Below are positions 1 to 17,001 of a stretch of DNA of 17,056 nt, one piece after another; position 1 is the first letter of the stretch, and every line of letters begins with the position of its first letter. Below the pieces are notes generated by a model. It saw nothing but the letters and a program-made list of their open reading frames with translations. It was not told the DNA's origin and did not search any database. The position numbers and the translations under genes are program-made. The stretch comes from a virus: UHGV virus genome UHGV-1593167. One strand, 5' to 3'.

Positions 1-36
1 AGCGGCAGGAGTCTATGAACACGTTTCAGTGAAACC

Positions 37-55: not shown

Positions 56-173
56 TTTATTAGAAATTTGCACTTAAATCAAAAAGTTACGGACAATTCA
101 ACCACCAATCAATAAATTAAAGGGCACATTAAAGTACACAATATTTGTGCCCTTCTCTGTTTCTTTCCCGTTA

Positions 174-722
174 TCAGCTAGCTGGAAACTTTTTATACAG
201 AGTTGAGAGCCCTACTCCATACGTTTTTGATACGCTTTGTCGTGATTCACCGGTTGCCATCCGCTCCCCCATTTCCCGCCATTGCTCATCCGTGAACTTA
301 GGCCTGCGACCACCAACTCGCCCTTTTGCCCTGGCTACGGCCAGCCCTGCTAAGGTACGTTCGCTATTAAGATCAGATTCATATTGTGCTGCGGAAAGGA
401 TGTTACGAAAGTTATAGCGGCCGCTGGCTGTTTTGAGATCCACGCCATCGGTAATACTGCGGAAGTTGATACCCTTTTCCTGTAACTGCTGGAACATCAA
501 CAGCGCATGCAGAACGTTGCGGCCTATCCTGTCCAGCTTCCAGACCACCAGTTCATCCCCCGGCTGCATAGTGGCGATCAGCCGTTTTAGAACCGGCCGA
601 TTCGATTTCCTCCCGCTGGCATGCTCTTCAAAAATTTTCTCACAACCCGCTGACTTGAGCGCCGTTAGTTGCAATTCAGTGTCCTGGTGGTTTGTTGATA
701 CTCGGGCATAACCGTAAATCAT
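174..722 (-). CDS. pin: Serine recombinase, DNA invertase of the Gin/Hin/Pin/Cin family
   Basis: 182 aa from the internal ATG at 722 (MIYGYARVSTNHQDTELQ...), with catalytic-serine motif YARVST, WKLDRIGR and a C-terminal HTH (GVGLSTLYKK). SD AGGAG lies 7 nt upstream of this ATG; the longer track ORF (to 881) has no plausible start. Sits next to an invertible fibre segment. Confidence 0.9.
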   Translation of the reverse strand: MIYGYARVSTNHQDTELQLTALKSAGCEKIFEEHASGRKSNRPVLKRLIATMQPGDELVVWKLDRIGRNVLHALLMFQQLQEKGINFRSITDGVDLKTASGRYNFRNILSAAQYESDLNSERTLAGLAVARAKGRVGGRRPKFTDEQWREMGERMATGESRQSVSKTYGVGLSTLYKKFPAS

Positions 723-726
723 GGGA

Positions 727-753
727 TTTCTCCTGTTATGAAAACAGGAGAAA
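727..753 (-). promoter_or_regulatory. Perfect 11-bp inverted repeat (TTTCTCCTGTT / AACAGGAGAAA, 5-nt spacer) in the invertase leader; the 3' arm contains the invertase SD
   Basis: 727-737 is the exact reverse complement of 743-753. On the pin mRNA this gives an 11-bp stem with a 5-nt loop ending 4 nt before the AUG and containing AGGAG. Confidence 0.5.
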
Positions 754-781
754 CGGCGAAGCATCACCAGATTTTTGATGG

Positions 782-807
782 TTATAAAAAAGGTTGGTTT
801 GGGAGAA
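782..807. other. Invertase crossover site 1 (hix/gix-like 26-bp site) TTATAAAAAAGGTTGGTTTGGGAGAA, core TT at 794-795
   Basis: Resembles recalled hix/gix sites (half-site TTATCAAAAACC, 2-bp central core). Shares 15 bp (TTGGTTTGGGAGAAG) in inverted orientation with the site at 2659-2684. Lies about 60 bp upstream of the invertase gene. Confidence 0.7.
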
Positions 808-1284
808 GGCTCTGCATTACCTGTTGGTGTCCCTGTTCCGTGGCCTTCCGCCACTCCGCCAACAGGCTGGCTGAAATGCAACGGTGCGGTTTTTTCTGCT
901 GAAGAATACCCGGAACTGGCAAAGGCTTATCCAACAAATAAATTGCCTGATTTACGTGGTGAGTTTATTCGTGGTTGGGATGACGGGCGCGGTATTGACG
1001 CGGGGCGCGAAATTCTGTCTGCTCAGGGGGATGCTATTCGTAATATAACCGGCACATTTGGTAATGGACAAACCGAAGCTAATGCGGCTATTAGCTTTAA
1101 TACAGCGAGTGGTGTTTTTGTAAGTCAATCAGCACTTCGTAATACGATAGGTAACACCACAATCATTCCAAATACCCCAAACAATCCTCATTTAGTCAAT
1201 TTTGATGCTTCAAGAGTAGTGCCAACTGCCTCAAAGAACAGACCAAGAAACATTGCATTTAACTATATCGTGAGAGCAGCATAA
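795..1284 (+). CDS. Silent alternative tail-fibre C-terminal cassette (Sv'-like); promoterless, expressed only as a fusion after inversion
   Basis: Reading frame begins inside crossover site 1 with no independent start signals. Encodes typical fibre C-terminal motifs (LPVGVPVPWPS..., ...RNIAFNYIVRAA). Same codon phase across the core as the fibre gene at site 2. Confidence 0.7.
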
Positions 1285-1886
1285 TGGATAAAGCAATATT
1301 AAATAGTGGACTTGTTGCTACAAAGGCAGGGGATATTACCGTTTATAACTATGATGGTGAAACGCGGGAATATATTTCCACATCAACTGAATATCTTGCG
1401 GTTGGCGTCGGTATCCCGGCATGTTCTTGTTTAGATGCACCAGTTACACATAAAGCTGGTTATACAATTTGCCGTTCAGCAGATTTAAAATCATGGGAAT
1501 ATATGCCAGACCATCGCGGTGAAATCGTTTTTAGCACCGAAACAGGGGAATCAAAAGAAATCACAGCTCCGGGTGATTACCCTGATAATACAACCACTAT
1601 CGCCCCGTTAACGCCATACGATAAATGGGATGGTGAGAAATGGGTGACGGATACCGAGGCACAGCACGGCGCAGCAGTAGATGCAGCAGAAGCACAGCGC
1701 CAGTCGCTGATTGATACTGCAATGGCCTCCATCAGTCTGATTCAGCTGAAATTGCAGGCCGGACGTAAACTAACGCAGGCAGAAACAACCCGCCTTAACG
1801 CTGTGCTGGATTACATTGACGCGGTGACGGCAACAGATACCAGCACCGTGCCGGATGTCATCTGGCCTGAACTGCCGGAGGCGTAG
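1284..1886 (+). CDS. Tail-fibre assembly protein (Tfa/gpG-U family), partner of the silent cassette
   Basis: 200 aa; ATG overlaps the upstream stop (TAATG); C-terminal ...DVIWPELPEA typical of Tfa chaperones; position inside the invertible segment. Confidence 0.75.
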   Translation: MDKAILNSGLVATKAGDITVYNYDGETREYISTSTEYLAVGVGIPACSCLDAPVTHKAGYTICRSADLKSWEYMPDHRGEIVFSTETGESKEITAPGDYPDNTTTIAPLTPYDKWDGEKWVTDTEAQHGAAVDAAEAQRQSLIDTAMASISLIQLKLQAGRKLTQAETTRLNAVLDYIDAVTATDTSTVPDVIWPELPEA

Positions 1887-2298
1887 GCCATTCAATATCT
1901 GGCGCACCGGAAGTATCGACCAGCTCCAGTGCGTCCAGATAATCCAGCCACAAATTATATTGCGCCAGTTCCTCACCTTTCAGACGACCAATAGCCGCTT
2001 TACCAGGCCATTGTTTACTGTTCATATAATCGTTGGCCTGATTAATCAGTTGCTGCTTTTCCAGTTCGGCTGCAGCAATCTGTTCCTCATATGTTGGTGG
2101 TGGAATTTCAGACCATGCAGGAAAACCATTTTCTCCAGCGATACGGATTTTTCCTTTCGGCGGTAATCCGGAAAACTCAATATACACTTGCTCATCAACT
2201 TCAACAGCATCATCTGGCCATGAGTCAGCTTGAGTGTAATCCTCTTTCATCTCCAGCGGATAGAAAGAGTTTGTAGTCGCGGAATATATGTAATTCAT
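1858..2298 (-). CDS. Tail-fibre assembly protein (Tfa/gpG-U family), partner of the currently expressed fibre
   Basis: 146 aa starting MNYIYSATTNSFYP..., C-terminal ...DIEWPTPP; SD GGAG 6 nt upstream of ATG at 2298; 3' end overlaps the convergent tfa by 29 nt. Confidence 0.8.
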   Translation of the reverse strand: MNYIYSATTNSFYPLEMKEDYTQADSWPDDAVEVDEQVYIEFSGLPPKGKIRIAGENGFPAWSEIPPPTYEEQIAAAELEKQQLINQANDYMNSKQWPGKAAIGRLKGEELAQYNLWLDYLDALELVDTSGAPDIEWPTPPAVQAR

Positions 2299-2319
2299 TT
2301 TTCACTCCATATAGCTAAA

Positions 2320-3102
2320 TTAACAGCCTAACGCTAAAAATGAAGCGCCGAGGCCAGGAGTACTGGCTCTGGATATAAATTTAACCGGGTCGGGACTAAA
2401 ACCTGCACAGGCAATATAACCAACAGCCCCGCTATCTGGTGTGTAGTCTTGTGAGACCAAAACACGCAGACATCTGTTTGGAAATGCAATCGGGAAATGG
2501 GTTACTACATCCTGTGCAATGCCTGGTGCGCCGATTGAGCCCCACTGAAGAATAAAACCTGATGGTAATTTTTGATATCCAGTACCTGAAACAGAAAGCG
2601 TGAAGCTACCCATATCAGGTATCTGATTCGCCCCTGTCCCTACATTCCTTTTAGCCGCTTCTCCCAAACCAAGGTATGTGAGAATGTCAGCAATAGTATT
2701 TTTCCCAATAATGTCACGGCCAACAGAAGTTAAATCAGTCTGCGCTGCTGTATCATTTCCAGTGAAATATGGGAGTTTATTTGCACCTGTTGCGAGCCCA
2801 GCTAATGCCGACAGCGTGGCATCAAGCGCCTGGAAATCTTTCCCGAAAGCGGTCCCCATTTTGGATATAAACCCGTTCAGGTCTCCATCATCAAGCACAT
2901 CCAGCCCGCTTTTGTTGGCGGTGTACTGCGCCAACGCTGCCGCGATAAAGCTGGCTTGCCGAATAGCTTTGTTGACCTGTGCGCTGGATGCTTTACCTGC
3001 CGTAAACCCTGAAAGCAGAGCCGGAAGTGCTTCCCAGTCAGCTTGTGAGGTGACGTTAGCGTTCGGATCAAGCGCGAAAGGTTTAAAGTTGTTTATTGCC
3101 AT
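2320..3102 (-). CDS. Tail fibre protein: constant N-terminal part (about 143 aa) fused in the current orientation to variable C-terminal part Sv (2320-2672)
   Basis: Start chosen at ATG 3102 (MAINNFKPF...), coupled to the upstream stop as TAATG; the track's longer ORF starts at 3120 with a poor SD. Crossover site 2 lies inside the gene at the constant/variable junction (...[13 protein letters not shown]...). Confidence 0.75.
2659..2684. other. Invertase crossover site 2 (hix/gix-like) TTCTCCCAAACCAAGGTATGTGAGAA, core AA at 2671-2672
   Basis: Left half TTCTCCCAAACC matches the recalled hix/gix half-site pattern; inverted relative to site 1 with complementary core dinucleotide; located inside the fibre ORF. 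Confidence 0.7.
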
Positions 3103-3782
3103 TAGAGTATTGTCCCCCATGCTCCAACATCGAACCCGCCGATGTATTCGTTATCCATATCAAACCCAAAGAATTTAGAGCCTTCTGACGGTGTTTCTAC
3201 CGAAGGCGTTTCAACATCACCGGCCCATACGCCAGCTGATTTAACGGTGAGATAGCCCTGTTTGATAGCGGCGATCAGTTCGAGAGACACATCAGAAATA
3301 TCAGTTTCAGGGAAAACCCAGACCGAAATCGTCATGTCCTGGTTGTCGACGATCTGCATCCTCAGGCCTGAGCCTGCGGTAGCAGCGTCAAGGATGGGAG
3401 GCAGAGAGTCGTTCCGACCGTCCCAGTTGTTGATAGCGATTTTCGCTTTCAGAATGATGCGGTACGTCTCATCGCTTAGCGTCGTATAGCCAGAATCAGG
3501 ATCATATGGCCCTTGCCAGATGCCCTGGTCATACCCAAGCCCGTCAGTGTCCCAGCTGAAATAAACTCCGCTAATTGGCTGGCTGACTATGCGACTGCGT
3601 CCGATCCACAGACCGAGGATGTCGAGCTGTACACCGACAGCAGTATCGATATCGAAGGCTGTTATAAGCCCTGACATAGCGCTGGACACATCAATCAGCG
3701 GGCGGGTGCTCAGATCTATATGGTCAAAAAAGAGTGGCTTGGTAGCGTGGTAGTTAGTGATCAGTTCGGTGTATTTGCTCAT
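3102..3782 (-). CDS. Baseplate/tail protein, Mu gp48 / P2 gpI-like (DUF2313-like)
   Basis: 226 aa; sits between the J-like gene and the tail fibre; ATGA overlap with upstream gene; family recalled, not searched. Confidence 0.6.
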
Positions 3783-4978
3783 GAGGTCACCGTGATACTG
3801 ATATTCGCGGTGCTACAGGACGCTGAAGCATCATAGGCAATATCAATGTTTGATGCCGATACGCTGCCAGACGACTTACCGATCAGCAGGTCGGTAATAT
3901 CGTAATAGCGGGCATTCCCGCCGCTCACAACGCCGAGGTTTGCCGGGGAATAAATACGGCTCAGCAGAACGTCGTCGCCAATTGTTAGGCCATTTATATA
4001 ATCGGCAACAGCCTGTTTAATCTGCTCGCCGATTTGAGAGGTATAGCCGGTAAAAACTTTCAGGGTAATGGCTACGAAAATTGGCACATCGGTAGAGCGC
4101 GAAAAACTGATGACGTGAGGATTACCATAAGTATCCGGCACTGTGACAGAAGTTTTACCGTAAGTTGCGGTTCCCTGCCCTTTATTCCCCCTGATGGTCT
4201 GGGCTATCTCGGTAACATCCCCTCCATCGACGATGGCGGAAATAGAGTGTGGCGGCAGCCCGTTGCTGTCGGTTGCCCCAGTGTCGTTCTCATATAGTTT
4301 GTGACGTGTCACGCCAGCAACATTAGCGATAGCACCGTCGACACCTTCAAACGGTGTGATCGATGGTAGCGCGACGCTTTGCCCCTGCCGAATGCGCAGC
4401 TCTGCGTCGGTTTCGGCTGGTGAACCGACAGTAGCCGCAACTGGATTGGTTACCGACACCCAACCTCGGGTCGGGGTGTTGATAGTGGTAATAGTCCCGG
4501 CCAGCGCCGCAACCGAACCGCTATTCGCACATGTGGCCGTCACCAGCACAGTACCATCAACGCCGATCGCCACACTCGCTGGAAAATTCCAGATAATGCC
4601 GTTTTTATCCCGTGCGGAGCCATTCGTGATAGTCGTGCCTGCCGTACCGGTTAACAGAAGGTCAGCAGTAGAGTTTGTCGCTACTTTTCGCGTGATCCCG
4701 TTAATTTTCACATTGTTGCTAAGCGCTGCGGCCTGCGCTGTCGTCGGTGAAAAAGAGTTGTAGATCTCGATAGCGGTATTGTTAGCGTCATGCACCGCAA
4801 GAGCCACCAGCGCGACCATTTGCCCATCTTTGCTGTCTGGTTCGAGGTAGGCATCACTACCGTAAATCTGCCTGAAATAGCTGGTCAGTGTATCAAGGAT
4901 TGTCTGGTAATCAGGCGCACTAATCCCCTGGGCGGTTACCGTTGCCGATAGCCCCAGCGTGTCGAGGTTCAAAGCCAT
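3779..4978 (-). CDS. Baseplate J-like protein (Mu gp47 / P2 gpJ family)
   Basis: 399 aa; size and position after the W-like gene; family recalled from sequence character. Confidence 0.7.
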   Translation of the reverse strand: MALNLDTLGLSATVTAQGISAPDYQTILDTLTSYFRQIYGSDAYLEPDSKDGQMVALVALAVHDANNTAIEIYNSFSPTTAQAAALSNNVKINGITRKVATNSTADLLLTGTAGTTITNGSARDKNGIIWNFPASVAIGVDGTVLVTATCANSGSVAALAGTITTINTPTRGWVSVTNPVAATVGSPAETDAELRIRQGQSVALPSITPFEGVDGAIANVAGVTRHKLYENDTGATDSNGLPPHSISAIVDGGDVTEIAQTIRGNKGQGTATYGKTSVTVPDTYGNPHVISFSRSTDVPIFVAITLKVFTGYTSQIGEQIKQAVADYINGLTIGDDVLLSRIYSPANLGVVSGGNARYYDITDLLIGKSSGSVSASNIDIAYDASASCSTANISITVTS

Positions 4979-5332
4979 TTATGCCTCGCTTGTTACAGTC
5001 GTCTGGCCGTAGATTGTGTCAATGGAGGAAGTGAAGGTGACGCGACGGCTGGTGCCGTCATAATTGGTATCGAAGGAAAGAATCGACAGAACGCCCGGTG
5101 TATCCTGTATGCGTTCGCGTATGGCCAGGATGTAGACATCTGATCGCTGCTTCCCAAGCACTGACTGAACATACGGCGTGCCTTCCGTCAGATCGAGAAA
5201 CCACTGACCGCGCCACAGCTCGAAACGGGTTTTTACGGCCTGGGCGACACATTCCGGACTGTCGATAAGGAAAGTATCGTCACCCTGGCCGAAAGTGTAA
5301 TCGCCTTCAGTATCTTCGCGACGGTATCGCAT
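4979..5332 (-). CDS. Small baseplate protein, Mu gp46 / P2 gpW-like (gp25-like)
   Basis: 117 aa; TAATG coupling with the upstream spike gene; position between spike and J-like genes. Confidence 0.6.
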   Translation of the reverse strand: MRYRREDTEGDYTFGQGDDTFLIDSPECVAQAVKTRFELWRGQWFLDLTEGTPYVQSVLGKQRSDVYILAIRERIQDTPGVLSILSFDTNYDGTSRRVTFTSSIDTIYGQTTVTSEA

Positions 5333-6072
5333 TATTGCGGCCCTCCGGTAGTTCCCCCGCCAGTCTGTACTCCGCCATGTTTATGCGTGGCGACACTGAT
5401 ACCAGAAGCTGTTACGTCATTCGTTACCGTCACCGGCCCAAGCATCGTCGCAGTACCGCCGCTTTCTCCCATTCCCTGAGACAGGTTACCGTTAATCGTT
5501 ACGTTGCCGTTCAGCGTGATAGTCGGGGATGTGATTGTCGTTCCACCCTCAGCCGTAGCCGTAAGCTTGCCCGGCGTTTTAACGGTGATGTTATGCCCTG
5601 CTGCGACCTCTACGAACGCCGAGCCATCATCGGTTCGCAGCTGCGCGGCGCTGGTACTGATACCGCTGATTTTCTGCGCTTGCGACTGCGGGCCAACGAT
5701 GGCGAACGCATCAGATAAGTCATGCTGGCGCGGGTCGACGGTCTCCTGAACGCCGCCGCTCTGCCACCAGAAATCGATGCAACGGTCGGCAAAGATCAGC
5801 AGGCACTCGTCGCCTTCTTTTACCGGAAAGGTCAGCGTGCAACCGCCGCCGCGCGGGAAGATAACCGGCACATCCACCAGCGGTTTTAATTCGGTGGAGC
5901 CATCGCCAACAATACCGCGAAGCGCTACCTCTACTGTGCAGGTAACAGTGTCAGGATCGAACGACTGAATGATGCCGGGCATCGCTACGCGCATCTGGGT
6001 AGACACCGAATCGACAATGGCCTGCGCGGTCTGCTGCTCACCGCCGATCTGTGATTGAGTTGGAATTGGCAT
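5332..6072 (-). CDS. Baseplate assembly protein V / central spike
   Basis: 246 aa; N-terminal V-type domain and Gly/Thr-rich C-terminus (...HKHGGVQTGGGTTGGPQ); SD GGGGG 7 nt upstream of ATG 6072. Confidence 0.7.
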   Translation of the reverse strand: MPIPTQSQIGGEQQTAQAIVDSVSTQMRVAMPGIIQSFDPDTVTCTVEVALRGIVGDGSTELKPLVDVPVIFPRGGGCTLTFPVKEGDECLLIFADRCIDFWWQSGGVQETVDPRQHDLSDAFAIVGPQSQAQKISGISTSAAQLRTDDGSAFVEVAAGHNITVKTPGKLTATAEGGTTITSPTITLNGNVTINGNLSQGMGESGGTATMLGPVTVTNDVTASGISVATHKHGGVQTGGGTTGGPQ

Positions 6073-6080
6073 AAAACCCC

Positions 6081-6107
6081 CATAAAAAAACCAGCCGAAG
6101 CTGGTTT
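6081..6107 (-). terminator. Rho-independent terminator-like hairpin on the minus strand, directly upstream of the spike gene
   Basis: Stem AAACCAGC / GCTGGTTT with loop CGAA (6088-6107); on the minus strand it is followed by a run of 7 T (6081-6087 are A on the plus strand). Confidence 0.5.
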
Positions 6108-6294
6108 GGTATCAATTATCTCTTAGTAACTAAGCCACATCAGTGTGAAGTAAGGCTTTTCCGCTGCAATGGCACACATTCACAAGGTGTATTAGGATAT
6201 GTTTGCAACAAGTAAGCATTGAAAATCAATTTCAGCCATGAAGCCGCCATAGAGTGGACCTGCACCATCGCATTATTGACTACAGGAGTAACAA

Positions 6295-6585
6295 ATGGGA
6301 TTTAGATTTCGTAAAAGAATCCGGATTGCGCCCGGACTCGCGATCAACATTAGTAAAAGCGGAGTAAGCACTTCAATTGGTGGTAAAGGTTCCACCATTA
6401 ACATCGGAAAAAAAGGCGTAAAGATGACAAATGGCCTTCCCGGCACGGGGCTGTCGCATACCACTAACCTTTACTCTCCCGGGAAATCGACAGAAAAAAA
6501 ACAACTTACTCATAAGCAAAAAATAATTAGAAACATCCTGTTCGTAATTATTGTGTTTATTATAATTAAAGCTCAATATTTTTGA
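6295..6585 (+). CDS. Small membrane-anchored protein with DUF4236-like N-terminal motif and C-terminal transmembrane helix
   Basis: 96 aa, MGFRFRKRIRIAPGLAINISKSGVSTSIGGKGSTINIGKKG... (family recalled); hydrophobic ILFVIIVFIII near the C-terminus; SD AGGAG 6 nt upstream; opposite strand to the surrounding tail genes. Confidence 0.6.
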   Translation: MGFRFRKRIRIAPGLAINISKSGVSTSIGGKGSTINIGKKGVKMTNGLPGTGLSHTTNLYSPGKSTEKKQLTHKQKIIRNILFVIIVFIIIKAQYF

Positions 6586-6590
6586 CGCAT

Positions 6591-6616
6591 GCCCGCCTAT
6601 CTGGCGGGCTATTTTA
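6591..6616. terminator. Bidirectional terminator-like hairpin between convergent genes
   Basis: Stem GCCCGCC / GGCGGGC with loop TATCT (6591-6609), followed by a T-rich tract on the plus strand and an A/T-rich tract on the minus strand. Confidence 0.55.
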
Positions 6617-6944
6617 CTTTTCGGCAGTCGTATGTTGCATACTGACGCGGCGAATCCATGCTGGCTTGCAGCCACTGAGCATTCAGGATTGCTTTACCAT
6701 TACGGCCAATAAACTCCATTCCTACCCATCGCCCTGGTTGATTGGTCGCTATGCGCCATTCAATTTTGACGTTGTTATAATCACCGTCATTTTTAAGAAA
6801 TGTCACTTTTTGCGATTCAGGTTTAGCTCCGTTTACGCGAGCGAAACCATCATCAGCCCAATGGATTTTGAAATCACCACACTGAGAATCAGCAATAGCT
6901 TGGAAAGAAAATAATGCTGCAATGATAAAAATTACGAGTTTCAC
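6609..6944 (-). CDS. Small secreted protein of unknown function
   Basis: 111 aa from GTG 6944 (SD GAGG 8 nt upstream); signal peptide MKLVIFIIAALFSFQA; two Cys; AT-rich gene. The track's longer start at 6986 lacks an SD and would overlap the hub gene. Confidence 0.55.
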   Translation of the reverse strand: MKLVIFIIAALFSFQAIADSQCGDFKIHWADDGFARVNGAKPESQKVTFLKNDGDYNNVKIEWRIATNQPGRWVGMEFIGRNGKAILNAQWLQASMDSPRQYATYDCRKVK

Positions 6945-6954
6945 GTCCCGTACC

Positions 6955-8019
6955 TCAGTAGTTTGTTTTTTGCATAGCACCAGCATTAACTAAATCACGA
7001 CTGCCACGCGCAAAACACATCAAATCCATGTACCACGCCTGACCTCTGGTGTCGCCAGTATAGTCGATAGCTTTGACGATATAAACGCCATCTGTCGCAA
7101 TGCTGGCAGCCTGTGACGTTGTGCCGGTCAGTGCGCGGTTGCCGTTCTCTTCCGTTTCAGTGATACGCCCGGGCGACTGTGCGATTTCGCTATTGCCGAG
7201 CGCGGCGCGGTACACCGAAGCCTGATCGAGCTGGATAAGACCATTAATGCGGATGTTTGGGTTTATCAGGCACCGCACGTTTACGCCGCCGCCCATTGTC
7301 TGTTGCGGCATACCGATCAGGCCAGTATTGGCATTTAACACAATGGCTTCGTGAATATATTTATCCTCCGGCACCATCTGGACCTGTCCATCCACCAGCT
7401 GCCATGTCGCTTTGCACTGCGCAGCAATATTATCCATCACGTTACGGGTGGATGAGTAAATCGCGCGGCCACGAGGAAACACGGTATCAGGAAAATCGCC
7501 GGTAATGCCCTGTGTCACGCCGAACGCGTTGAAATCCTGCATCGTCGCCCGGTGCAGATCCGCAACGGTATAGCCAGCGGCAAGCGTGGTGATGGTAGTC
7601 GCGTAGAGGAACGCTTCGTGGTTACTGATGGCCTGAATCAGCACCCAGGAATCGGTGATGTTGTCCTTCCCGGTGACGGTGAAGCGAATATCACCGTCAA
7701 ATATCAGGCCGTAGTTCTGACCGTTCACCTGCCCTACCTGGTCTGGTGAAATCTCCCGGGCGACACCAACCTGGCTCGCATCAACATCCGGCGCAATACC
7801 GTCATACCCGGCAATGATGCGAATTTTTGCAAACTCCTGCCCCAGTATCTTGTTCGTGGTATCGGTCGAAAGGTTGTAAATTTTCACGTTTGCCACGCGC
7901 GGCCAGCGTGTATCTGCCCACTCGATCTGGAACGTGACCTTAAAATCAGACAGGGAAATACCCTGCCCGTTCTGGTCCAACAGCTGCAACTCAAAATGGC
8001 GCATCCAGTTAAGAGACAT
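6955..8019 (-). CDS. Putative baseplate hub / tail protein, assigned by position
   Basis: 354 aa; SD AGGAG 5-6 nt upstream of ATG 8019; lies between the tape-measure-like gene and the spike. Family not recognised with certainty. Confidence 0.45.
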   Translation of the reverse strand: MSLNWMRHFELQLLDQNGQGISLSDFKVTFQIEWADTRWPRVANVKIYNLSTDTTNKILGQEFAKIRIIAGYDGIAPDVDASQVGVAREISPDQVGQVNGQNYGLIFDGDIRFTVTGKDNITDSWVLIQAISNHEAFLYATTITTLAAGYTVADLHRATMQDFNAFGVTQGITGDFPDTVFPRGRAIYSSTRNVMDNIAAQCKATWQLVDGQVQMVPEDKYIHEAIVLNANTGLIGMPQQTMGGGVNVRCLINPNIRINGLIQLDQASVYRAALGNSEIAQSPGRITETEENGNRALTGTTSQAASIATDGVYIVKAIDYTGDTRGQAWYMDLMCFARGSRDLVNAGAMQKTNY

Positions 8020-8021
8020 TT

Positions 8022-8327
8022 CTACTCCTGCACGAAAATGAGGTGGCTGTATGTGCCGAGGTTGGTTTTGGTGGGCTCGTCTGGTGCGCCCTTATCGGTC
8101 GCCACCACCAGCGCACCATCAATGCCAAGCTGTGGATATTGTCGTAATAGGTTCACGCCGGTCAGGAGAGGTACGCCAGAAAGAAGCGCAGCACCGCCGC
8201 TATCCATCACGTCCATGATCCAGCCAGCCGCATCGCGCCAGATGATCCTGAGCGTATAGGTGGTATTGCCCAGCAAAACGCGGAACTGCTGATTGTCAGG
8301 AGAAAGCGGTATTTCGTTAAACTGCAT
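8022..8327 (-). CDS. Small phage tail protein, unknown function
   Basis: 101 aa from ATG 8327 (SD GGGGGA 5 nt upstream); coupled to neighbouring genes in the tail operon. Confidence 0.5.
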   Translation of the reverse strand: MQFNEIPLSPDNQQFRVLLGNTTYTLRIIWRDAAGWIMDVMDSGGAALLSGVPLLTGVNLLRQYPQLGIDGALVVATDKGAPDEPTKTNLGTYSHLIFVQE

Positions 8328-8328
8328 A

Positions 8329-8931
8329 TCATCCCCCGAATGCTGATGTAACGCTTCCGCCAAGCTGGCTCAGCAAGGATTCGTTTGGCGGTGTAGTGGA
8401 TTTCGTCCCGGAATTTTGCACCGCCGATGTGCTGACGCCATCCTGCATATCTGATTTATCAGCAACACTAACGCTCTGCGTTTGCGACATGATCACTTCA
8501 CGCAGGGTAAGCGTGCAGTTCAGCACGTTTTCGCTGGTTTTGTCCGTTGTCACCTCGATGGCTCGCACCAGCATATTGCTGTACACCCGCTTTCCGGTCA
8601 CCACATCGAACGGCACCCGAGAGGACTGGAGATCCAGCAGTTGCTGATAGGTCTCTTTCGGGCTTAGTCCGGCGCTGAGGCCGATTGAAGATGTATCAAT
8701 GAAGTCCAGCAACGAACCGCCACCAGCGAAGCCGCATTCCATTGTGACTTCGCTGGGGCGCTTATACGCATGATCGGCGATGAAGCCCGAAGCGCTATTC
8801 GTTGTTGGCTTCTCCACCGGGTGCTCAGTAATTTCGAGCGCATCAGAATGCTTTTCGGAGACGACCACGCTGGGGATCAGCAGGCCAATTCGCCGGGATT
8901 GCTGGCGAAAAATCGCTGATAAAATATCCAT
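8329..8931 (-). CDS. Phage tail protein, unknown function
   Basis: 200 aa; ATG 8931 overlaps the stop of the upstream gene (TAATG). Confidence 0.5.
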   Translation of the reverse strand: MDILSAIFRQQSRRIGLLIPSVVVSEKHSDALEITEHPVEKPTTNSASGFIADHAYKRPSEVTMECGFAGGGSLLDFIDTSSIGLSAGLSPKETYQQLLDLQSSRVPFDVVTGKRVYSNMLVRAIEVTTDKTSENVLNCTLTLREVIMSQTQSVSVADKSDMQDGVSTSAVQNSGTKSTTPPNESLLSQLGGSVTSAFGG

Positions 8932-10532
8932 TATCTCGGTCCTGCGGGGAGTTGCTGGGTTAACTGTGAATTCACGCCCTTTTGACGATCAACAGTCAAA
9001 CGGGCAGCCTCGCGCGGATCGGAAACGCCGTGGATGTTAATATTCGTTTCCTGCTGAATCACCGGGGCGCTGGTGGGCATGTTGCTCATTACTTTCGGAA
9101 TGTAGTTACGCGTTTCCTGCGGCATTAACCCCATGCCATAGCGCTTAACATTCCCGATCCCCCAGTTATATGATGCCAGTGCTTTGCTAAGGTCTCCACC
9201 GTTCTGCCGCAACAGCTGGCTGAGGTACTTAGCTGCGGCCTGAGCTGACTTTTGCGGGTCGAATACATCGTTTCCGCGAAGGCCCATGTCGCGCGCCGTA
9301 CCATCCATAAACTGAAACAGACCTTTCGCGCCTGCGCCGGACATGGCGAACTGGTTACCACCTGACTCGGTTATCGCCACACTTTTCAATAGACCAGCTG
9401 GAAGTTGATAAAGCGACTCAAGTTTATTGAACATTGGCCCCATCCAGTCGAGCAATACTTTGCCCTGGGCTGTGGCCCGTGGACGTTTGACTGATTGCGC
9501 AAACTGGGAGGGGTCACCCGATATATTTGGAGAGATTTCAGCAGCTCCAGCCGGGGAGAAAAATAAATTACCGATTTTGGCAATCCCGTCTGAGATTTTT
9601 TCAAGATAACCATTAGCAGCCTGCTGACGGTTTTTTATTTCATCTCTTTCATGCGGGGCAATTTCATTACTACGAACATGCTGTTCCGCCCCGGGAATGT
9701 CAGGCTGAACATTATCGCCATAAACGACGCCATTGCTTTGCGCCTGACGAATAATCTTACCTGGGCCACCATGCAGCCAATCCATCCATGCGGGCCATTC
9801 TCTTACCTCGCTAACATCTTTTCGCCCAAGGTCGGTTTTGATGCCAACCGTAGCAAGAGCATCACCAATGTTCCTTTTGGTATAGTCCAAAGATGATTTA
9901 GCACTGGCTTTTATGTTTTCACGATCTGAAACCAGGTAACCAGCATACGCTCCCCATAATTTAAGCCATGGAGGTATCGGAAGACCGGATATTTTTGCGA
10001 ATGCTCCCAATACTTTTGTTACCCATACCCCAGCGATGAAAGTAGCCAAAATTTCCAGCGAGTTCTGCCATCCACCAACAGAATCTTTCAGCCCCAGAAG
10101 CTTATCGCGCAGCCAGAGAATTGCCTTTTTCGCCTTTTCTATTGCAGGCTCCCACTTGGACCAGTCAATCAGGCTTTTACCGCCTTCTTTCCACGTCTGA
10201 TAATCGTCATAGAGTAATCCGATCGCCAGAATCAGCGTGGTGATAATTCCAATCGGGGATTTCAGGAACGCAGAATTAAGCAGACGCCATGCGACAAGTA
10301 GAGCACCGAATATTTTCAGCAGATTTTTACTGCCATCGTCAAGACGCTTCCACCAGTCGATGACAGAGCCAGCGCCCTGTATCAGCCGCCACGCCATTCT
10401 CGTGAATGCGTTCGCAAGCCAGATCACGCCTTTAATAACTCTGGTCAGCGTCTCTTCAATCTTCGGGAAATTGTCGAGGATGCGCCGCCGCAGGCTGTCC
10501 AGCGAACCAGCCAGGCCACCAGCGAAGTTCAC
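8931..10532 (-). CDS. Tape-measure-like tail protein fragment with hydrophobic segments and a C-terminal lytic transglycosylase (SLT) domain; probably 5'-truncated
   Basis: SLT motifs (ITESGGNQ..., GLFQF, SYNWG); hydrophobic helices typical of tape-measure C-terminal regions. The ORF opens with GTG directly after an in-frame stop and abuts an oppositely oriented operon. Confidence 0.55.
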   Translation of the reverse strand: MNFAGGLAGSLDSLRRRILDNFPKIEETLTRVIKGVIWLANAFTRMAWRLIQGAGSVIDWWKRLDDGSKNLLKIFGALLVAWRLLNSAFLKSPIGIITTLILAIGLLYDDYQTWKEGGKSLIDWSKWEPAIEKAKKAILWLRDKLLGLKDSVGGWQNSLEILATFIAGVWVTKVLGAFAKISGLPIPPWLKLWGAYAGYLVSDRENIKASAKSSLDYTKRNIGDALATVGIKTDLGRKDVSEVREWPAWMDWLHGGPGKIIRQAQSNGVVYGDNVQPDIPGAEQHVRSNEIAPHERDEIKNRQQAANGYLEKISDGIAKIGNLFFSPAGAAEISPNISGDPSQFAQSVKRPRATAQGKVLLDWMGPMFNKLESLYQLPAGLLKSVAITESGGNQFAMSGAGAKGLFQFMDGTARDMGLRGNDVFDPQKSAQAAAKYLSQLLRQNGGDLSKALASYNWGIGNVKRYGMGLMPQETRNYIPKVMSNMPTSAPVIQQETNINIHGVSDPREAARLTVDRQKGVNSQLTQQLPAGPR

Positions 10533-10553
10533 TCAGAAAAACTGGAGAACATC

Positions 10554-10760
10554 ATGGTTCATCAGCACTACGGTACACAGACAGTAAACCGCGGCGCAGT
10601 TCAGCCGGGGATGCTCGTCAAACACAAAGACTCAACCTGGACGGCATCAGCTAACGCTCGCGGACGTTTGTATCTGCATCGCGGCGTAGAAATGACTTAC
10701 ACCAAGGATTTGCTGGTTGAAGTTTATCTGAACGGTCTGGGGCATGGACTCAGCCACTAG
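10554..10760 (+). CDS. Small protein (68 aa), first gene of the early operon; possible Kil-type protein
   Basis: SD GGAG 6 nt upstream of ATG; occupies the position that kilR holds upstream of ydaE-racC-recE in Rac. Identity is inference from synteny only. Confidence 0.4.
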   Translation: MVHQHYGTQTVNRGAVQPGMLVKHKDSTWTASANARGRLYLHRGVEMTYTKDLLVEVYLNGLGHGLSH

Positions 10761-10771
10761 CGGAGGATGTC

Positions 10772-10933
10772 ATGTTAGACAAGAAATGCGGATATTGCGG
10801 CAAGCCGGTTAAAACGGAGGAAGTAATCAAGAGCACCCTTCTCTATCGCAACGGCTCACAGCTGGCGCGCAAAGAAAAAGAGTATTGCTCCAAACGTTGC
10901 GCTTCGCACGACCAGATGGCTCACGAAGGCTAA
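10772..10933 (+). CDS. Small zinc-ribbon protein (53 aa; CxxC...CxxxC), not in the ORF track
   Basis: MLDKKCGYCGKPVKTEEVIKSTLLYRNGSQLARKEKEYCSKRCASHDQMAHEG; SD GGAGG 4 nt upstream of the ATG; four Cys at positions 6, 9, 39, 43. Confidence 0.5.
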   Translation: MLDKKCGYCGKPVKTEEVIKSTLLYRNGSQLARKEKEYCSKRCASHDQMAHEG

Positions 10934-11071
10934 CGTAAAACCCGCGCAAGGCGGGATTCACGTCCGGTGCCACCGACCAAAGTTACACCGGAATTTATAC
11001 CAAACCAAAAAACATCCAATGGGCGCTATCTCTGGCCCGGGGATTCTAACACTCAAAAAAGAGGATCTCAC

Positions 11072-13981
11072 ATGGAATTTTTCCATCTGATAAAAGCCAG
11101 TCAGAAGTCTGGCAAGAAAGATGCAGTGATTTGGTTCACTGCGAAAAGTGTAGCGCGCGCCAATCTCCAACTCGATGTGGCACTGGAAGAAGCCGGAATT
11201 GAAGAAACTGGCCGCGGTAAAGATTATGCCAAACCAATCCGCACCGATTTCCCGGTATATGACGACCTGCCGGAAGAAGGCGCAGTGGATTACACCTGGT
11301 GCGAACGCTACGAACTGCAGAACGATGACCGCACCTGGCTGCCAAAAGTCACAGCTGAAAACTCTGACGAGAAAACGGCTCAGACCGTTGATAGTCACAT
11401 AACTACTGAGTCAACGCTGCCAGAAACCGCTGGCATCACGCTGGACGAACACGACGACGACTCAACCCTCTACCCGGTAGTGCAGATGCCGTTTCGTAAG
11501 CAACTGCTTTCCCAGTTCACCGCCGACGAACTGCGCCACCACGTAACCCGCGAAGAGTACGAAGCTATCGGCGCGCTGGAGATGGACACTGATAACAGTT
11601 ACGTCCAGAACTTGCTGTTAGCTGCTGAGAACTGCCCGGAAGTGAAGGGTTACGACACCAAAGACCTGTGGCGCTACACCGATGCCATTCGCAAAGTGTT
11701 CAGCCAGGACAAGCGTCACGAACTCGCGCTGGTACTCCGTTTCACCAGAATGTGGGCGGCTACTGATTACATTGACCGTGGCATCCTGGCGCGTGAATGG
11801 GCTGCCGGTAATCACATCAGTAGTGTTCAGCGTACTGATTCCGGAACCAATGCCAACGGCGGTTACGTCACTGACCGTGGACCTGATACATACCATACCC
11901 TTGACACTCTCGATTTAGAGATTGCATGTGCCCTTCTGCCTATGGACTTCAACCACTTCGAGATCCCGGGCAGCATTCTTCGTCGCGCTAAAGAAATCGT
12001 GACCAAAAAAGAAGAACCGTGGAAATCATGGAGCAGCATTCTGCGCAATCAACCCGGCGTTCTTGGCGTTAACCGCACAGCTATTTTTAACCTGATACGT
12101 ATCGCGCCGGAAAATATTCATCTAACTCCTGTCGCTCACCTGGAGTTTGTTAACCGGACCATGACTGCTGCGTTTAATGCTGCTGTTGAGTTATTGCCAT
12201 TGCATGAAGCTGAGCCCGCAACACAGGAAATTCCCCAACCTGAAAGTAAGGAGTCTCCACGCAAACCCTTCTGCACTCACGAAGAGAACCTGCAACGCGT
12301 ACGTGAAGAAGAAGCACGCCGCCGCGCAGAGGAAGCGACAGCACAACCACATAAAGCCGAACAAGAACTGGTTAAAAATGTCGGCAACGGAATATTCGAT
12401 GTTACGGCTTTACTGCAGAACTCAGCAACTCATGGCACGAAACAGGCTACGGAAACCACCAGCAATGTGCAGGTTCAAGAAACTGTCAGTGATGAAAAAA
12501 ATGTTGGTAATGAAATGCAGTCAGGCGAAAGCAGTCTGGAAACTGGTGAAGAGTCACATCCCGGCCAGCAGGCCGATGTAAACCAAAATACGGAATCTGT
12601 CGCTCAAAATAGCGATTCTGTAAACCAGACTGAACCAGTTTTGGCACACGTCGAGCCAGAGGCGCAATCTGACGAACAAGCTGTTTTTTACCCCGATTAC
12701 TTCGAGCCTGGGCGCTATGAAGGTCTGCCGAACGAGGTTTACCACGCTGCCAACGGCATCAGTTCCACCCAGGTAAAAGATGCGCGCGTTTCGCTGATGT
12801 ACTTCAATGCGCGCCACGTTGAGAAAACCATCGTCAAAGAGCGCTCCTCAGTGCTGGACATGGGAAACCTGGTACATGCGCTGGCGTTGCAGCCAGAACA
12901 GCTCGATGAAGAATTTAGCGTTGAACCCGTAATTCCGGAAGGTGCATTTACCACCACGGCAACGATCCGCGCGTTTATTGATGAGTACAACGCCAGCCTG
13001 CCAGCGCAACTGAGCGCAGACGATATCAAAGCTTTGCTGGATGAATACAACGCCACCCTGCCAGCGCTGGTGCCGCTGGGCGCTAGCCTGGATGAAACGG
13101 CGCAGAACTATATGGCGCTGCCAGCTGAATTCCAACGTATCGATGCAGATCAGAAGAAGACAGCAACAGCAATGAAGGCGTGCATCAAAGAGTACAACGC
13201 CACCCTGCCAGCGCAGATTAAAACCAGCGGCAGCCGCGACGCACTACTCGAACAACTTGCGATTATCAATCCTGACCTGGTCGCGCAGGAAGCTCAGAAG
13301 CTGCAACCGCTGAAAGTCTCTGGCACGAAGGCCGATCTGATTCAGGCCGTGAAGGCAGTCAAACCAGATGCAGTGTTCGCCGACGAGCTGCTCGATGCTT
13401 GGCGCAACAACCCGGAAGGGAAAGTGCTGGTTACCCACCAGCAACTTGCCACCGCGCAGGCAATTCAGTCAGCACTGCTCTCGCACCCGACCGCAGGCAT
13501 GCTGCTAACCCACCCGAGCCGCGCCGTTGAGGTGAGCTACTTTGGCTTTGACGAGGAGACGGGACTGGAAGTTCGTGTGCGCCCTGACCTTGAGATCGAC
13601 CTAGACGGCGTGCGTATCGGTGCTGACCTGAAAACCATCAGCATGTGGAATGTTAAGCAGGAAAGCCTGCGCGCCAGGCTACACCGGGAAATTATTGAAC
13701 GTGATTATCACCTGAGCGCGGCTATGTACTGCGAAACCGCAGCGCTGGATCAGTTCTTCTGGATTTTCGTCAACAAAGACGAGAACTACCACTGGATCGC
13801 CATCATCGAGGCATCCGCTGAACTACTGGAGCTGGGTATGCTCGAGTACCGCAAAGCGATGCGCAATATCGCAACCGGATTCGACACAGGTGAATGGCCA
13901 GCGCCAATCACTGCTGACTACACCGACGAACTGAACGACTTCGACCTGCGCCGCCTTGAAGCGCTGCGTACTCATGCATAA
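11072..13981 (+). CDS. recE: Exodeoxyribonuclease VIII (RecE) homologue: RecE-type N-terminal region, acidic disordered linker, C-terminal PD-(D/E)XK nuclease domain
   Basis: 969 aa from ATG 11072 (SD GAGG 8 nt upstream; the track's start at 10967 has none). N-terminal and C-terminal blocks match recalled Rac RecE (e.g. NEVYHAANGISSTQVKD; RPD...GADLKT). Confidence 0.75.
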   Translation: MEFFHLIKASQKSGKKDAVIWFTAKSVARANLQLDVALEEAGIEETGRGKDYAKPIRTDFPVYDDLPEEGAVDYTWCERYELQNDDRTWLPKVTAENSDEKTAQTVDSHITTESTLPETAGITLDEHDDDSTLYPVVQMPFRKQLLSQFTADELRHHVTREEYEAIGALEMDTDNSYVQNLLLAAENCPEVKGYDTKDLWRYTDAIRKVFSQDKRHELALVLRFTRMWAATDYIDRGILAREWAAGNHISSVQRTDSGTNANGGYVTDRGPDTYHTLDTLDLEIACALLPMDFNHFEIPGSILRRAKEIVTKKEEPWKSWSSILRNQPGVLGVNRTAIFNLIRIAPENIHLTPVAHLEFVNRTMTAAFNAAVELLPLHEAEPATQEIPQPESKESPRKPFCTHEENLQRVREEEARRRAEEATAQPHKAEQELVKNVGNGIFDVTALLQNSATHGTKQATETTSNVQVQETVSDEKNVGNEMQSGESSLETGEESHPGQQADVNQNTESVAQNSDSVNQTEPVLAHVEPEAQSDEQAVFYPDYFEPGRYEGLPNEVYHAANGISSTQVKDARVSLMYFNARHVEKTIVKERSSVLDMGNLVHALALQPEQLDEEFSVEPVIPEGAFTTTATIRAFIDEYNASLPAQLSADDIKALLDEYNATLPALVPLGASLDETAQNYMALPAEFQRIDADQKKTATAMKACIKEYNATLPAQIKTSGSRDALLEQLAIINPDLVAQEAQKLQPLKVSGTKADLIQAVKAVKPDAVFADELLDAWRNNPEGKVLVTHQQLATAQAIQSALLSHPTAGMLLTHPSRAVEVSYFGFDEETGLEVRVRPDLEIDLDGVRIGADLKTISMWNVKQESLRARLHREIIERDYHLSAAMYCETAALDQFFWIFVNKDENYHWIAIIEASAELLELGMLEYRKAMRNIATGFDTGEWPAPITADYTDELNDFDLRRLEALRTHA

Positions 13982-13986
13982 GGGGA

Positions 13987-15105
13987 ATGATGATGGAAAA
14001 CACGAATATCGTAACCGCTGAACAGCAGACTCCAAACACGATCTCAGCCAGCAATGCCATTTTCAACGTGCAGGCTTTAACCCAGCTTCAGTCTGTCGCC
14101 GGGTTGATGGCACAGGCAGCCGTAACGGTGCCTGAGCACCTCCGCGGCAATCCGGCAGACTGCATGGCCATCATCATGCAGGCGATGCAGTGGGGTATGA
14201 ACCCTTACGCCGTGGCGCAAAAGACGCACCTGGTTAACGGTGTCCTGGGATACGAAGCGCAACTGGTTAATGCGGTGATCTCCAGCTCAAACGCCATCGT
14301 TGGCCGCTTTCACTATGAGTACGAGGGCGACTGGTCGAAATGTGCCAGCAGCCGCGAGATAACCGTTAAAAAGCCTGCGAAAGGTGGCGGGACGTACGAC
14401 AAGAAAGAAATGGTACGCGGTTGGGAAAGTGCTGATGAACAAGGACTGTCGGTACGGGTAGGTGCCGTTATTCGCGGTGAAAGTGATATCACCTGGGGAG
14501 AGCCTGTTTTCCTCTCCAGCGTAATCACACGTAATTCTCCACTTTGGGTATCAAACCCGAAACAGCAGATCGCTTATCTGGCACTCAAATACTGGGCGCG
14601 CCTGTATTGCCCTGCAGTTGTTCTTGGTGTGTACACCCCTGATGAGATTGAACAGCGCACAGAAAAAGAGATCAACCCAACGCCGCAACGCGTTAGCCTG
14701 GCTGATATCTCAGGTGACACCGTCACAACCACGCAAAGCGCACAGGAATCGTCGGTAAATGTCGACTCTCTTGCCGATGATTTCCGCGAACGCATCGAAT
14801 CTGCTCAGGACGTGGAAAGCGCCAAATCGCTGCGTGCCGACATTGAAACGGCGAAAGCTACGCTGGGATCCGCACTATTCACCGAGCTGAAAAACAAAGC
14901 CGTAAAGCGTTATTACCTAGTGGATGCACGCAACAAGGTTGAGGAGGCTATTAAATCCCTGCCCCAGCCCGACGAGCCGCATGCAGCCGAACGGTTCGCT
15001 GAAGCCGAGCGCATGCTTGCATCTTCAAAGCGTCACTTAGGCGATGAACTGCACGATCAATTCAGCATCACCCTGGCGGATATGAAACCGGAATACGTGG
15101 CCTGA
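13987..15105 (+). CDS. RecT/Redbeta-family single-strand annealing protein with a long C-terminal extension
   Basis: 372 aa; core resembles recalled Redbeta/RecT (QWGMNPY..., LWVSNPKQQIAYLALKYWARL...); starts 6 nt after recE stop with three consecutive ATG. Confidence 0.65.
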   Translation: MMMENTNIVTAEQQTPNTISASNAIFNVQALTQLQSVAGLMAQAAVTVPEHLRGNPADCMAIIMQAMQWGMNPYAVAQKTHLVNGVLGYEAQLVNAVISSSNAIVGRFHYEYEGDWSKCASSREITVKKPAKGGGTYDKKEMVRGWESADEQGLSVRVGAVIRGESDITWGEPVFLSSVITRNSPLWVSNPKQQIAYLALKYWARLYCPAVVLGVYTPDEIEQRTEKEINPTPQRVSLADISGDTVTTTQSAQESSVNVDSLADDFRERIESAQDVESAKSLRADIETAKATLGSALFTELKNKAVKRYYLVDARNKVEEAIKSLPQPDEPHAAERFAEAERMLASSKRHLGDELHDQFSITLADMKPEYVA

Positions 15106-15427: not shown

Positions 15428-15625
15428 ATGGATGATATTTTGGTAACGTCAGACCTGACCAGTCGCTACAAAATTTCACGCAAAACCCTTTGGTCATGGC
15501 AAAGTGCAGACACAATGCCTCGGGGCTTCGTATGCCCGTTCCCACCCCCTGACTGGCCCGGCAACCCTAACCGCTGGCGCTCTGAGTCAATCAAAGAGTG
15601 GGAGGATAAAAAGAAGATAAATTAA
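15428..15625 (+). CDS. AlpA/Xis-family HTH protein (putative excisionase or regulator)
   Basis: 65 aa from ATG 15428 (SD GGAG 6 nt upstream). Motif [22 protein letters not shown] followed by a Trp/Pro-rich tail ending IKEWE, typical of AlpA/Xis-like proteins. Adjacent to the integrase. Confidence 0.6.
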
Positions 15626-16815
15626 CTGAAGGGCTCTCCGATGATCTCTTCAAGATGGCTCTGCCAAACGCGGAGCCAGTGTTTCTGATCATCGATATAG
15701 TCATGAAGGTTGTAATGCGCCATAACCCCCACCATCTGATGCCCGAGCAGCTTTTCAATTACGTGCGGCGGGCAACCTAACTCAGAGAGATTTGTGGCTA
15801 TCGTCCGCCTCATATCATGAAGCGACCACTCTGCCATACCTGTTCCATTCCAAATAGAACGGGCGTAATTGGATGCCACAGGTGAATGAACGGGCGAATC
15901 TTTGATCCCGCCATCAATTTTACGTTGTGAAGTCACCAGGTGATTGGTGTTTATTTTCTTGAGGTGATTTCTGACCAGGTTAACGGCGGCGTCTGAGAGT
16001 CCCCTTCTAATATGTACCCGAGTTTTATAACTGCCCGCAGGCACGACCCACTCATTATCATCCAATCGAAACCATGATCTCTCACTAAGTCGAATCTCAG
16101 CCGTACGGCATCCGGTAAGCATAATAAATTTCACCAGGAAAACGGACTCTATCGACATATGGCTTTTCAACCACTGATAGATTTTGCGCAGATCGTCATC
16201 GTCCATCCTGCGAGTTCTCTTTTTAGGCTTTTGCCCGACATCAGATGGCAGTAATCCCTCGAGTGGGTTTGAGGCGATCACACTTCTGTTAACGCAGAAC
16301 CTAAACGCCCGTTTGCACAGCGAAAGCATGTAATGAGCCATCACCCTGCTTTCTATAGAATCGAAGACGTTGATCCAGTGCATTTTCGCTGTGTTATCGA
16401 CTTTGACATTCTTCATCGGTTCGGCGATATGTTTCTCAAACACCTGGCGATAGTAATCGACTTTAACTAGCCCGTTAGCGATACAGTGCCTTTCAATCCA
16501 GTAATTGAACGCTTCGGCAACGGACATCGCTTCCTGTCGGGTCTGCTTATCCAGCTTCACCTGCTCTCGCGGATCCAGTCCCTCAGTTAACCAGTTTCTG
16601 AATTGTTGGCGACGCTCTCTTGCCTGGGTGATACTCATTGCAGGATAATCACCAACATTGAGTTTTACCGCTTTACCGGCCCAGCGATACCGATAGAAAA
16701 ATGATATTTTTCCGGCCTGGCTGATTCTGGCGTTGAGCCCGTGCGAATCAGAAATAATCTCGATATCATCTCTTTTCTTGCCGAGCGCCTTCCTGAGCTT
16801 TGTGTCGGTGATCAT
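15622..16815 (-). CDS. int: Tyrosine integrase, P4/CP4-57-like family
   Basis: N-terminal [10 protein letters not shown]... resembles the P4-type LTDTxIKAAK motif; C-terminal catalytic region has LHDMRRT and MAHYNLHDY (R-H-R-Y pattern). Start uncertain (16815, 16830 or 16872); none has a clear SD. Confidence 0.85.
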
Positions 16816-16820
16816 TGAAT

Positions 16821-16861
16821 GGGTACACATTTTTGTTTTTGGGTACACAAAAGTGTACACA
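16821..16861. repeat. Three direct repeats of GTACACA (two as GGGTACACA) in the integrase leader; candidate arm-type binding sites or operators
   Basis: GGGTACACA at 16821-16829 and 16841-16849, GTGTACACA at 16853-16861; between the integrase start and attR. Confidence 0.4.
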
Positions 16862-17001
16862 AAGTTGCCCACTCAAAGCTACACGCAATGTAACACTAGT
16901 TCGCAGAGTGTTATGGTTTACATCCTTGAAAGCCTGCTGGATAAGGGTTTAGCGTAACAGAACGTTTTTACGCGGAATTGTTCGTAATATGCCAAATGAC
17001 A

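Follow-up and report, generated by a model that had tools for sequence, protein, structure and literature searches.

Intact KilR-family and YdaE-family genes at the head of a recombination operon in a yciI-kch prophage remnant, left without their promoter

The prophage remnant and its deletion junction

The stretch of DNA analysed here (the window, 17,056 nt, from the virus genome UHGV-1593167) carries two short adjacent genes, kil and ydaE, on the plus strand ahead of recE and recT. The features that define the locus are as follows:

8931..10532, minus strand: truncated tape-measure/lytic transglycosylase (SLT) gene, encoding residues 224-755 of a 755-aa protein, with the SLT domain
10516..10529, no strand: deletion junction, a 14-bp microhomology (CCACCAGCGAAGTT), from a four-way DNA alignment
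10544..10547, plus strand: Shine-Dalgarno sequence of kil (GGAG), read from the sequence, 6 nt before the ATG and kept in all intact relatives
10554..10760, plus strand: kil, encoding a 68-aa KilR-family protein, from the open reading frame (ORF) listing and family profiles
10762..10766, plus strand: Shine-Dalgarno sequence of ydaE (GGAGG), which begins 2 nt past the kil stop codon and ends 5 nt before the ATG
10772..10933, plus strand: ydaE, encoding a 53-aa YdaE-family protein with a putative Cys4 zinc finger (C6, C9, C39 and C43; C-terminal DQMAHE)
11072..13981, plus strand: recE (exonuclease VIII family, 969 aa), from Pfam Exonuc_VIII and DUF3799
13987..15105, plus strand: recT, from Pfam RecT (E 2.5e-36)
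15622..16872, minus strand: tyrosine integrase gene at the prophage end beside kch, from Pfam Phage_integrase and Arm-DNA-bind_3 and from the kch neighbourhood of related genomes

The whole window is a prophage remnant lying between yciI and kch, an integration site that is also used by phi80-like phages. On the left the window begins with the 3′ end of yciI, and on the right it stops slightly past the integrase gene, which adjoins kch. The minus strand of positions 1-10529 encodes a module for the baseplate and fibres of a contractile tail; from position 10516 on, kil-ydaE-recE-recT-DUF4060-xis follow on the plus strand, and then int on the minus strand. At the yciI end, a DNA invertase gene (Pin-like recombinase, 174-881, minus strand) lies beside oppositely oriented segments of tail-fibre and tail-fibre-assembly genes (775-2298), an arrangement that, as in the phi80 and mEp phages, suggests a host-range switch by inversion of tail-fibre genes. 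The start of recE was placed at the ATG at 11072 on the basis of the mEp237 and RefSeq annotations and the reading frame, and is supported by a Shine-Dalgarno sequence. The ORF listing runs recE back to a GTG at 10967 (1004 aa); this N-terminal extension overlaps the region of an IsrB-like RNA (window 10967-11071, see below) and is probably not translated.

The truncated SLT gene is divergent from kil, 21 bp away, and its product shares 99% identity with the last 532 residues of the 755-aa protein that a related genome (L005) encodes intact. The match to the tail module stops at 10529 and the match on the kil side begins at 10516; the overlap between them is a microhomology, its sequence being common to the intact tape-measure/SLT gene and to the kil leader of intact relatives. 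The junction lies 25 bp upstream of kil, with the tail module to its left and the early-left operon to its right, and the deletion, which reaches into the middle of the tape-measure gene, took the genes for immunity, replication, lysis and the head. We found this junction in no complete E. coli genome of the collection searched. It is present in five independent metagenome contigs (L010-L014), one of them of 139 kb, and it therefore marks a real lineage, not an assembly artefact. In E. coli TD225-C4 (L004, 6535-7502), a related prophage that also lies between yciI and kch has an independent internal deletion, where a truncated baseplate gene is joined to a truncated ydaT, and because of this second deletion, repeated prophage decay at the site seems common.

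The kil gene, its product and its expression

The initial annotation placed ORFs of 68 and 53 codons at 10554..10760 and 10772..10933, both on the plus strand, and these coordinates proved to be exact, with 11 nt separating the two genes. That both ORFs are very short, and that the surrounding 3-kb region is overlapped by 31 ORFs of 30 aa or more, would favour reading them as chance open frames or mis-called genes without a product. The probability of this is negligible, as it is refuted by the profile matches, the Shine-Dalgarno sites, the synonymous bias and the occurrence of each exact protein on at least 1000 public contigs. Proteins identical to the two products include gp33 (Kil) and gp32 (YdaE) of phage mEp237, and they are encoded by many E. 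coli prophages. Compared with HK225, kil differs at 14 nucleotides, 11 of which are third codon positions, corresponding to 10 synonymous and three non-synonymous codon changes; compared with L021, there are 10 synonymous changes and no non-synonymous one. The ydaE alleles of two loci each differ by three synonymous and no non-synonymous changes. Since the alleles differ mostly by synonymous changes, this pattern of codon substitution indicates that both genes are under purifying selection. There is no start codon upstream of 10554 in the kil frame of the window, and the longer Kil proposed by two 116-aa database entries (P0001 and P0002) was rejected as an over-extended call through the in-frame leader of intact loci.

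A resemblance of the 68-aa protein to KilR had been put forward as uncertain, and it was borne out by the searches. The kil product is 34% identical over 61 residues (BLASTP, E 1e-12) to K-12 KilR, the one KilR that has been studied by experiment, and its residues 1-67 match PHROG 294, 'Kil protein for bacterial septation inhibition' (E 2e-34). The Pfam label PF27398 (KilR) is precomputed on the identical protein and is carried by every homologue of the kil product in the large protein collection. PF27398 and PF27493, the latter discussed below, are newer Pfam models and were read as precomputed labels; the Pfam copy that we searched predates the KilR model PF27398, and in it no family, lambda Kil included, was found for the 68-aa protein at E values up to 1. 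Neither the 68-aa nor the 53-aa protein matched the PADLOC defence-system models at E values up to 1, and a PDB sequence search gave nothing for Kil. With the NCBIfam model of Rac KilR (NF008465 / PRK11354), the kil product scores 60.4 bits (E 1.3e-16), and because this is below the 92-bit cut-off, the protein is placed by its sequence in a sister subfamily of the KilR family and not as an orthologue of the Rac protein. The family is narrow, comprising 80 clusters at 50% identity among 1.84 billion representatives, and the subfamily of the window protein is the commoner one in this survey. No experiments on this Kil subfamily were found in the searchable literature; a paper on O157 that names KilR 74 times was set aside as a source of such data, as its KilR is the Rac-type allele. 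RefSeq, Pfam, NCBIfam and PHROGs already have names for the two proteins, which are products of ordinary, catalogued prophage genes, and as a discovery the finding is of low value.

The AlphaFold2 model of Kil (pLDDT 81.8) has six strands within residues 8-59, while residues 1-7 and 60-68 are largely without regular structure. In this model, Kil is an SH3-like beta-barrel core (8-59) followed by a flexible C-terminal tail, which is the small beta-rich architecture of KilR; an AlphaFold3 prediction of KilR likewise comprises a beta-sheet core flanked by disorder, over seven residues at the N-terminus and 12 at the C-terminus (Marepalli et al. 2025, PMC12482147). The core of the window protein ends at L59, which is aligned with L61 of KilR, leaving a tail of nine residues (NGLGHGLSH). 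Among 31 diverse representatives of the family, the usual tail has nine residues and the form L(D/N)xxGxPxxx, the 12 residues of Rac KilR being the exception, and the tail of the window protein departs from the family form in having G-H-G in place of G-x-P.

KilR activity depends critically on the tail. Removal of all 12 residues abolishes toxicity, progressively shorter tails being progressively weaker, and KilR lacking the last three residues is still toxic and filaments cells, with no rounding or MreB mislocalisation, while replacement of these three residues by alanines restores the dual effect (PMC12482147). The toxicity of KilR is suppressed by extra FtsZ, and KilR expressed alone from a plasmid is fully toxic (PMC12482147). 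From the homology with Rac KilR, we infer that the window Kil inhibits FtsZ-dependent division as KilR does; if expressed, it would block the formation of the FtsZ Z-ring, leading to filamentation and eventually to the death of the host. The tail of the window protein has the length left in KilR without its last three residues, with a different sequence. Because the tail has nine and not 12 residues, Kil may be a division inhibitor only, lacking the MreB and rounding effect of full-length KilR, a prediction that applies a rule derived from truncations of another protein (Rac KilR, 34% identity). With its naturally nine-residue tail, this subfamily lends itself to testing the tail-length rule that was put forward for Rac KilR.

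Many kil alleles in the databases are frameshifted or truncated (P0083, P0085, P0090, P0091, P0103, P0109, P0112 and P0115 in alignment A2), as expected of a gene that is costly to the host, and these alleles are consistent with a toxic gene having been inactivated repeatedly in resident prophages.

The 68-aa protein could instead have diverged functionally from KilR, having another target or no toxicity, so that 'Kil' would be an inherited annotation. The score below the Rac-KilR cut-off would fit such a divergence, as would a critical tail that differs in both length and sequence and the fact that the identical protein is still called 'hypothetical protein' in some RefSeq genomes. However, conservation with KilR extends over the entire core and the two proteins share a predicted architecture, the nine-residue tail is the family norm, the many broken alleles fit a host-costly gene and the position in the operon is that of kilR, which makes a functional divergence improbable in our judgement.

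In intact relatives, the region upstream of kil consists of the terminator of the upstream genes, a promoter (TTGACA-17-TTTAAT, approximately 280 nt upstream of kil) and a leader of approximately 240 nt. This leader is nearly invariant among phages that are otherwise mosaic (L002, 5740-6038; also L001 and L015-L021) and may be a regulatory or attenuator RNA. An Rfam search with the leader of the relatives returned no family, only chance-level matches and a terminator, and BLASTN detected no homology between it and the region upstream of Rac kilR/KilS. The window retains the last 38 nt of the leader (10516-10553), upstream of which lies the antisense strand of the truncated tail gene. A consensus promoter scan gave one weak plus-strand site upstream of kil (10176-10204), and over both strands of the region, two promoter-like sites were found, compared to 1.2 expected by chance. 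Since the deletion removed the promoter together with most of the leader, kil is probably silent, and kil and ydaE, judged from the sequence of the locus, are intact and probably not transcribed in the window. This reading rests on the missing promoter and leaves room for spurious antisense transcription through the truncated tail gene. In Rac, the long 5′-UTR of kilR has its own promoter and gives rise to the KilS sRNA (PMC8175672), and in K-12, residual kilR transcription is also held down by Rho and NusG (PMC5793797, PMC12482147). The suggestion in the initial annotation that the 68-aa protein would be conditionally toxic thus probably does not apply in situ, as the native kil promoter is deleted. 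In summary, the locus would illustrate how a host keeps an intact toxic phage gene, a microhomology deletion having taken its promoter and leader.

YdaE, recE and an IsrB-like antisense RNA

The 53-aa product of ydaE matches the NCBIfam YdaE model (NF041288) with 94 bits, against a cut-off of 35, over profile positions 1-50 of 50, and the identical protein carries the precomputed label PF27493:YdaE. The identity with K-12 YdaE is 40%, and C6, C9, C39, C43, D47, Q48, M49, A50 and E52 are invariant in 20 members of the family. The cysteine arrangement noted in an earlier assignment as a zinc-ribbon protein is confirmed (C6-x2-C9 ... C39-x3-C43, all four being invariant), but the predicted fold is not that of a classical zinc ribbon. 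In the structural model, C39 and C43 lie at the N-terminus of a helix preceded by a beta-hairpin, and the closest folds are eL24, Rlp24, TRASH, MYND and the YacG treble-clef fingers, so that YdaE is predicted to be a treble-clef/TRASH/eL24-like finger. The Pfam copy searched gave sub-threshold zinc-finger matches alone for YdaE, and the PDB sequence search gave marginal matches to the eL24 motif. The RefSeq product name of K-12 YdaE is 'zinc-binding protein', and the window YdaE presumably binds zinc. The YacG models miss their cut-offs on YdaE (13.8 bits versus 25.5 for PF03884, and 15.1 versus 79 for NF002362). It is very unlikely that YdaE inhibits DNA gyrase in the manner of YacG, or another DNA enzyme, as a phage factor used alongside RecET.

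The spacer between ydaE and recE contains a candidate small RNA on the opposite strand, with the following features:

10935..11036, minus strand: IsrB-like small RNA, antisense in the ydaE-recE spacer, its 5′ end placed from the promoter-like site
10955 to 10941, minus strand: terminator-like hairpin and U-run, at the end of the IsrB-like RNA
11043..11071, minus strand: promoter-like site GTGAGA-17-TAGAAT with an upstream TG (extended -10), from the consensus scan

The Rfam isrB model (RF01386) matches approximately 100 nt of the spacer with 27 bits, below the gathering score of 35 (E 0.0034 over 241 nt), compared to 99 bits for the genuine isrB of Gifsy-1, which occupies the same slot and strand; the experimentally identified isrB-2 maps between STM2631 and sbcA (PMC2330248). 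Three stem-loops are predicted for the window RNA (-36.8 kcal/mol, z -2.2), which is antisense to the recE 5′-UTR, and the promoter-like site overlaps the ribosome-binding region of recE on the opposite strand. The block was detected by blastn in 74 of 80 YdaE loci, and its conservation extends to mEp237, HK225, PHB10 and Klebsiella phages. Within it, the internal hairpin CCGGUGUAACUUUGGUCGGUGGCACCGG is conserved, the hairpin CCGGUGUAACUUUGGUCGG... does not vary and compensatory changes are seen in the aligned terminator stem, and the TAGAAT hexamer is kept in mEp237, HK225, a Klebsiella phage and Gifsy-1. The hairpin at 10941-10955 was also considered as a terminator of kil-ydaE or a nut-like site; this was rejected because its U-run is on the minus strand, and for the same reason we assign it as the terminator of the IsrB-like RNA.

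We compared the neighbours of ydaE among the 80 best YdaE loci from viral contigs, a sample that is biased to close relatives (85% identity or more). RecE follows YdaE in 79 of these loci, the exception being a locus without downstream sequence, and Kil precedes it in 55. Of the 73 loci in which the spacer between the ydaE stop codon and the recE ATG could be measured, 69 have one of 138-144 nt. Among individual genomes, a YdaE homologue precedes recE in Rac, mEp237, HK225, Gifsy-1 (STM2630), PHB10 and a Klebsiella phage, and in four of these six Kil is present as well. The near-invariable linkage to recE in this sample of close relatives, together with the presence of Kil in 55 of the 80 loci, speaks for YdaE as a part of the recombination module and not a companion of Kil. 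YdaE would then be, from its co-occurrence with recE, a protein-binding accessory of this module, and its near-obligate linkage gives experiments a specific direction. In two loci (L015 and L022, 3386-3889 in each), a gene for a 167-aa HNH_3/AP2-domain protein, homing endonuclease-like, is inserted between ydaE and recE.

Alternatively, Kil and YdaE could be a functional pair, in which YdaE neutralises, potentiates or chaperones Kil as part of a toxin-partner module. Wherever both genes occur, they are neighbours in the same orientation, and they are so close in the window (the 11-nt gap) or overlapping in Rac (by 1 nt; kilR 8009-8230, ydaE 7839-8009) that translational coupling is suggested. 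In addition, an in-frame, full-length Kil-YdaE fusion of 124 aa occurs naturally in a cluster of 56 members from Phytobacter diazotrophicus and others (P0184). Against such a pairing, YdaE occurs without Kil in 25 of the 80 loci as well as in Gifsy-1, PHB10 and Klebsiella phages, KilR is toxic by itself from a plasmid (PMC12482147) and the fusion could be the mere loss of a stop codon between neighbours. We therefore regard a dedicated Kil-YdaE pair as quite improbable, more so than a functional divergence of Kil. A single further sequence (P0104) has the first 29 residues of Kil fused to YdaE.

The observations on both genes could also be joined in a wider proposal, to which we give limited credence and which is offered as a tentative one: ydaE, the IsrB-like RNA and recE would form a conserved RecET unit in which Kil is optional, and Kil with its nine-residue tail would act on division only. 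YdaE would here be an accessory or regulator of RecET and the antisense RNA would gate recE, the ydaE-recE spacing being fixed at 138-144 nt. If this were true, the dual FtsZ/MreB activity of Rac KilR would be derived, arising from its three-residue extension.

The explanation that we favour, and consider likely, is that kil and ydaE head the early-left operon of a lambdoid prophage, that kil encodes a KilR-like Kil protein and that the promoter of the operon has been deleted. The two genes would be the first of an operon kil-ydaE-recE-recT-DUF4060-xis in a prophage with a Rac-like early region, encoding a cytoplasmic Kil and, in YdaE, a Cys4 zinc-stabilised mini-protein. In intact relatives, the operon would be driven by its own sigma-70 promoter approximately 280 nt upstream of kil; in the window, a microhomology-mediated internal deletion has removed this promoter and all but 38 nt of the leader. 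Both genes thus remain intact, with products identical to those of the viable phage mEp237, but would most likely be transcriptionally orphaned.

Comparison with known systems

Lambda Kil, a 47-aa FtsZ inhibitor that depends on ZipA, is an analogous small cytokinesis blocker from the early-left operon of a lambdoid phage. No sequence relationship between it and the 68-aa protein was detected (Pfam, E up to 1), and unlike KilR, lambda Kil does not disturb MreB (PMC12482147).

The candidate antisense RNA resembles IsrB of Salmonella Gifsy-1 and Gifsy-2 (RF01386) in its slot directly upstream of recE/sbcA and on the opposite strand, in its length of approximately 90-100 nt, in the CUUUGGUCGGU hairpin loop present in both and in its Rho-independent terminator. 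It differs from IsrB in that it scores 27 bits against the gathering score of 35 and in that the 5′ third is not alignable.

The Rac prophage provides the closest comparison for the two genes. KilR of Rac (b1352, 73 aa), an FtsZ inhibitor that at high level disturbs MreB, belongs to the same family as the window Kil (PF27398 / PHROG 294); the core is conserved end to end at 34% identity, both proteins have a predicted beta-barrel with unstructured N- and C-termini, and the 12-residue tail of Rac KilR (GRDGLPVKAESW) contrasts with the nine residues of the window protein. In their native contexts, both genes have a long leader and their own promoter, from which KilS is made in Rac and to which the leader of approximately 240 nt corresponds in the relatives of the window. 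Unlike Rac kilR, the window kil is without a promoter and most of its leader, and the leader of the relatives is not detectably homologous to that of Rac. YdaE of Rac (b4526, 56 aa) is likewise of the same family as its window counterpart (NF041288 / PF27493), with four cysteine ligands and the DQMAHE motif, the first cysteine pair being CxxC in the window and CxxxxC in K-12. The synteny with Rac claimed in the initial annotation holds for the order kil-ydaE-recE-recT, which is that of NC_000913.3, but not for racC, which is missing from the window. In both prophages, kil is thus the first gene ahead of ydaE-recE-recT and ydaE lies between kil and recE, while the gap between ydaE and recE, which in Rac (kilR-ydaE-racC-recE-recT) is filled by racC, is occupied in the window by the IsrB-like sRNA.
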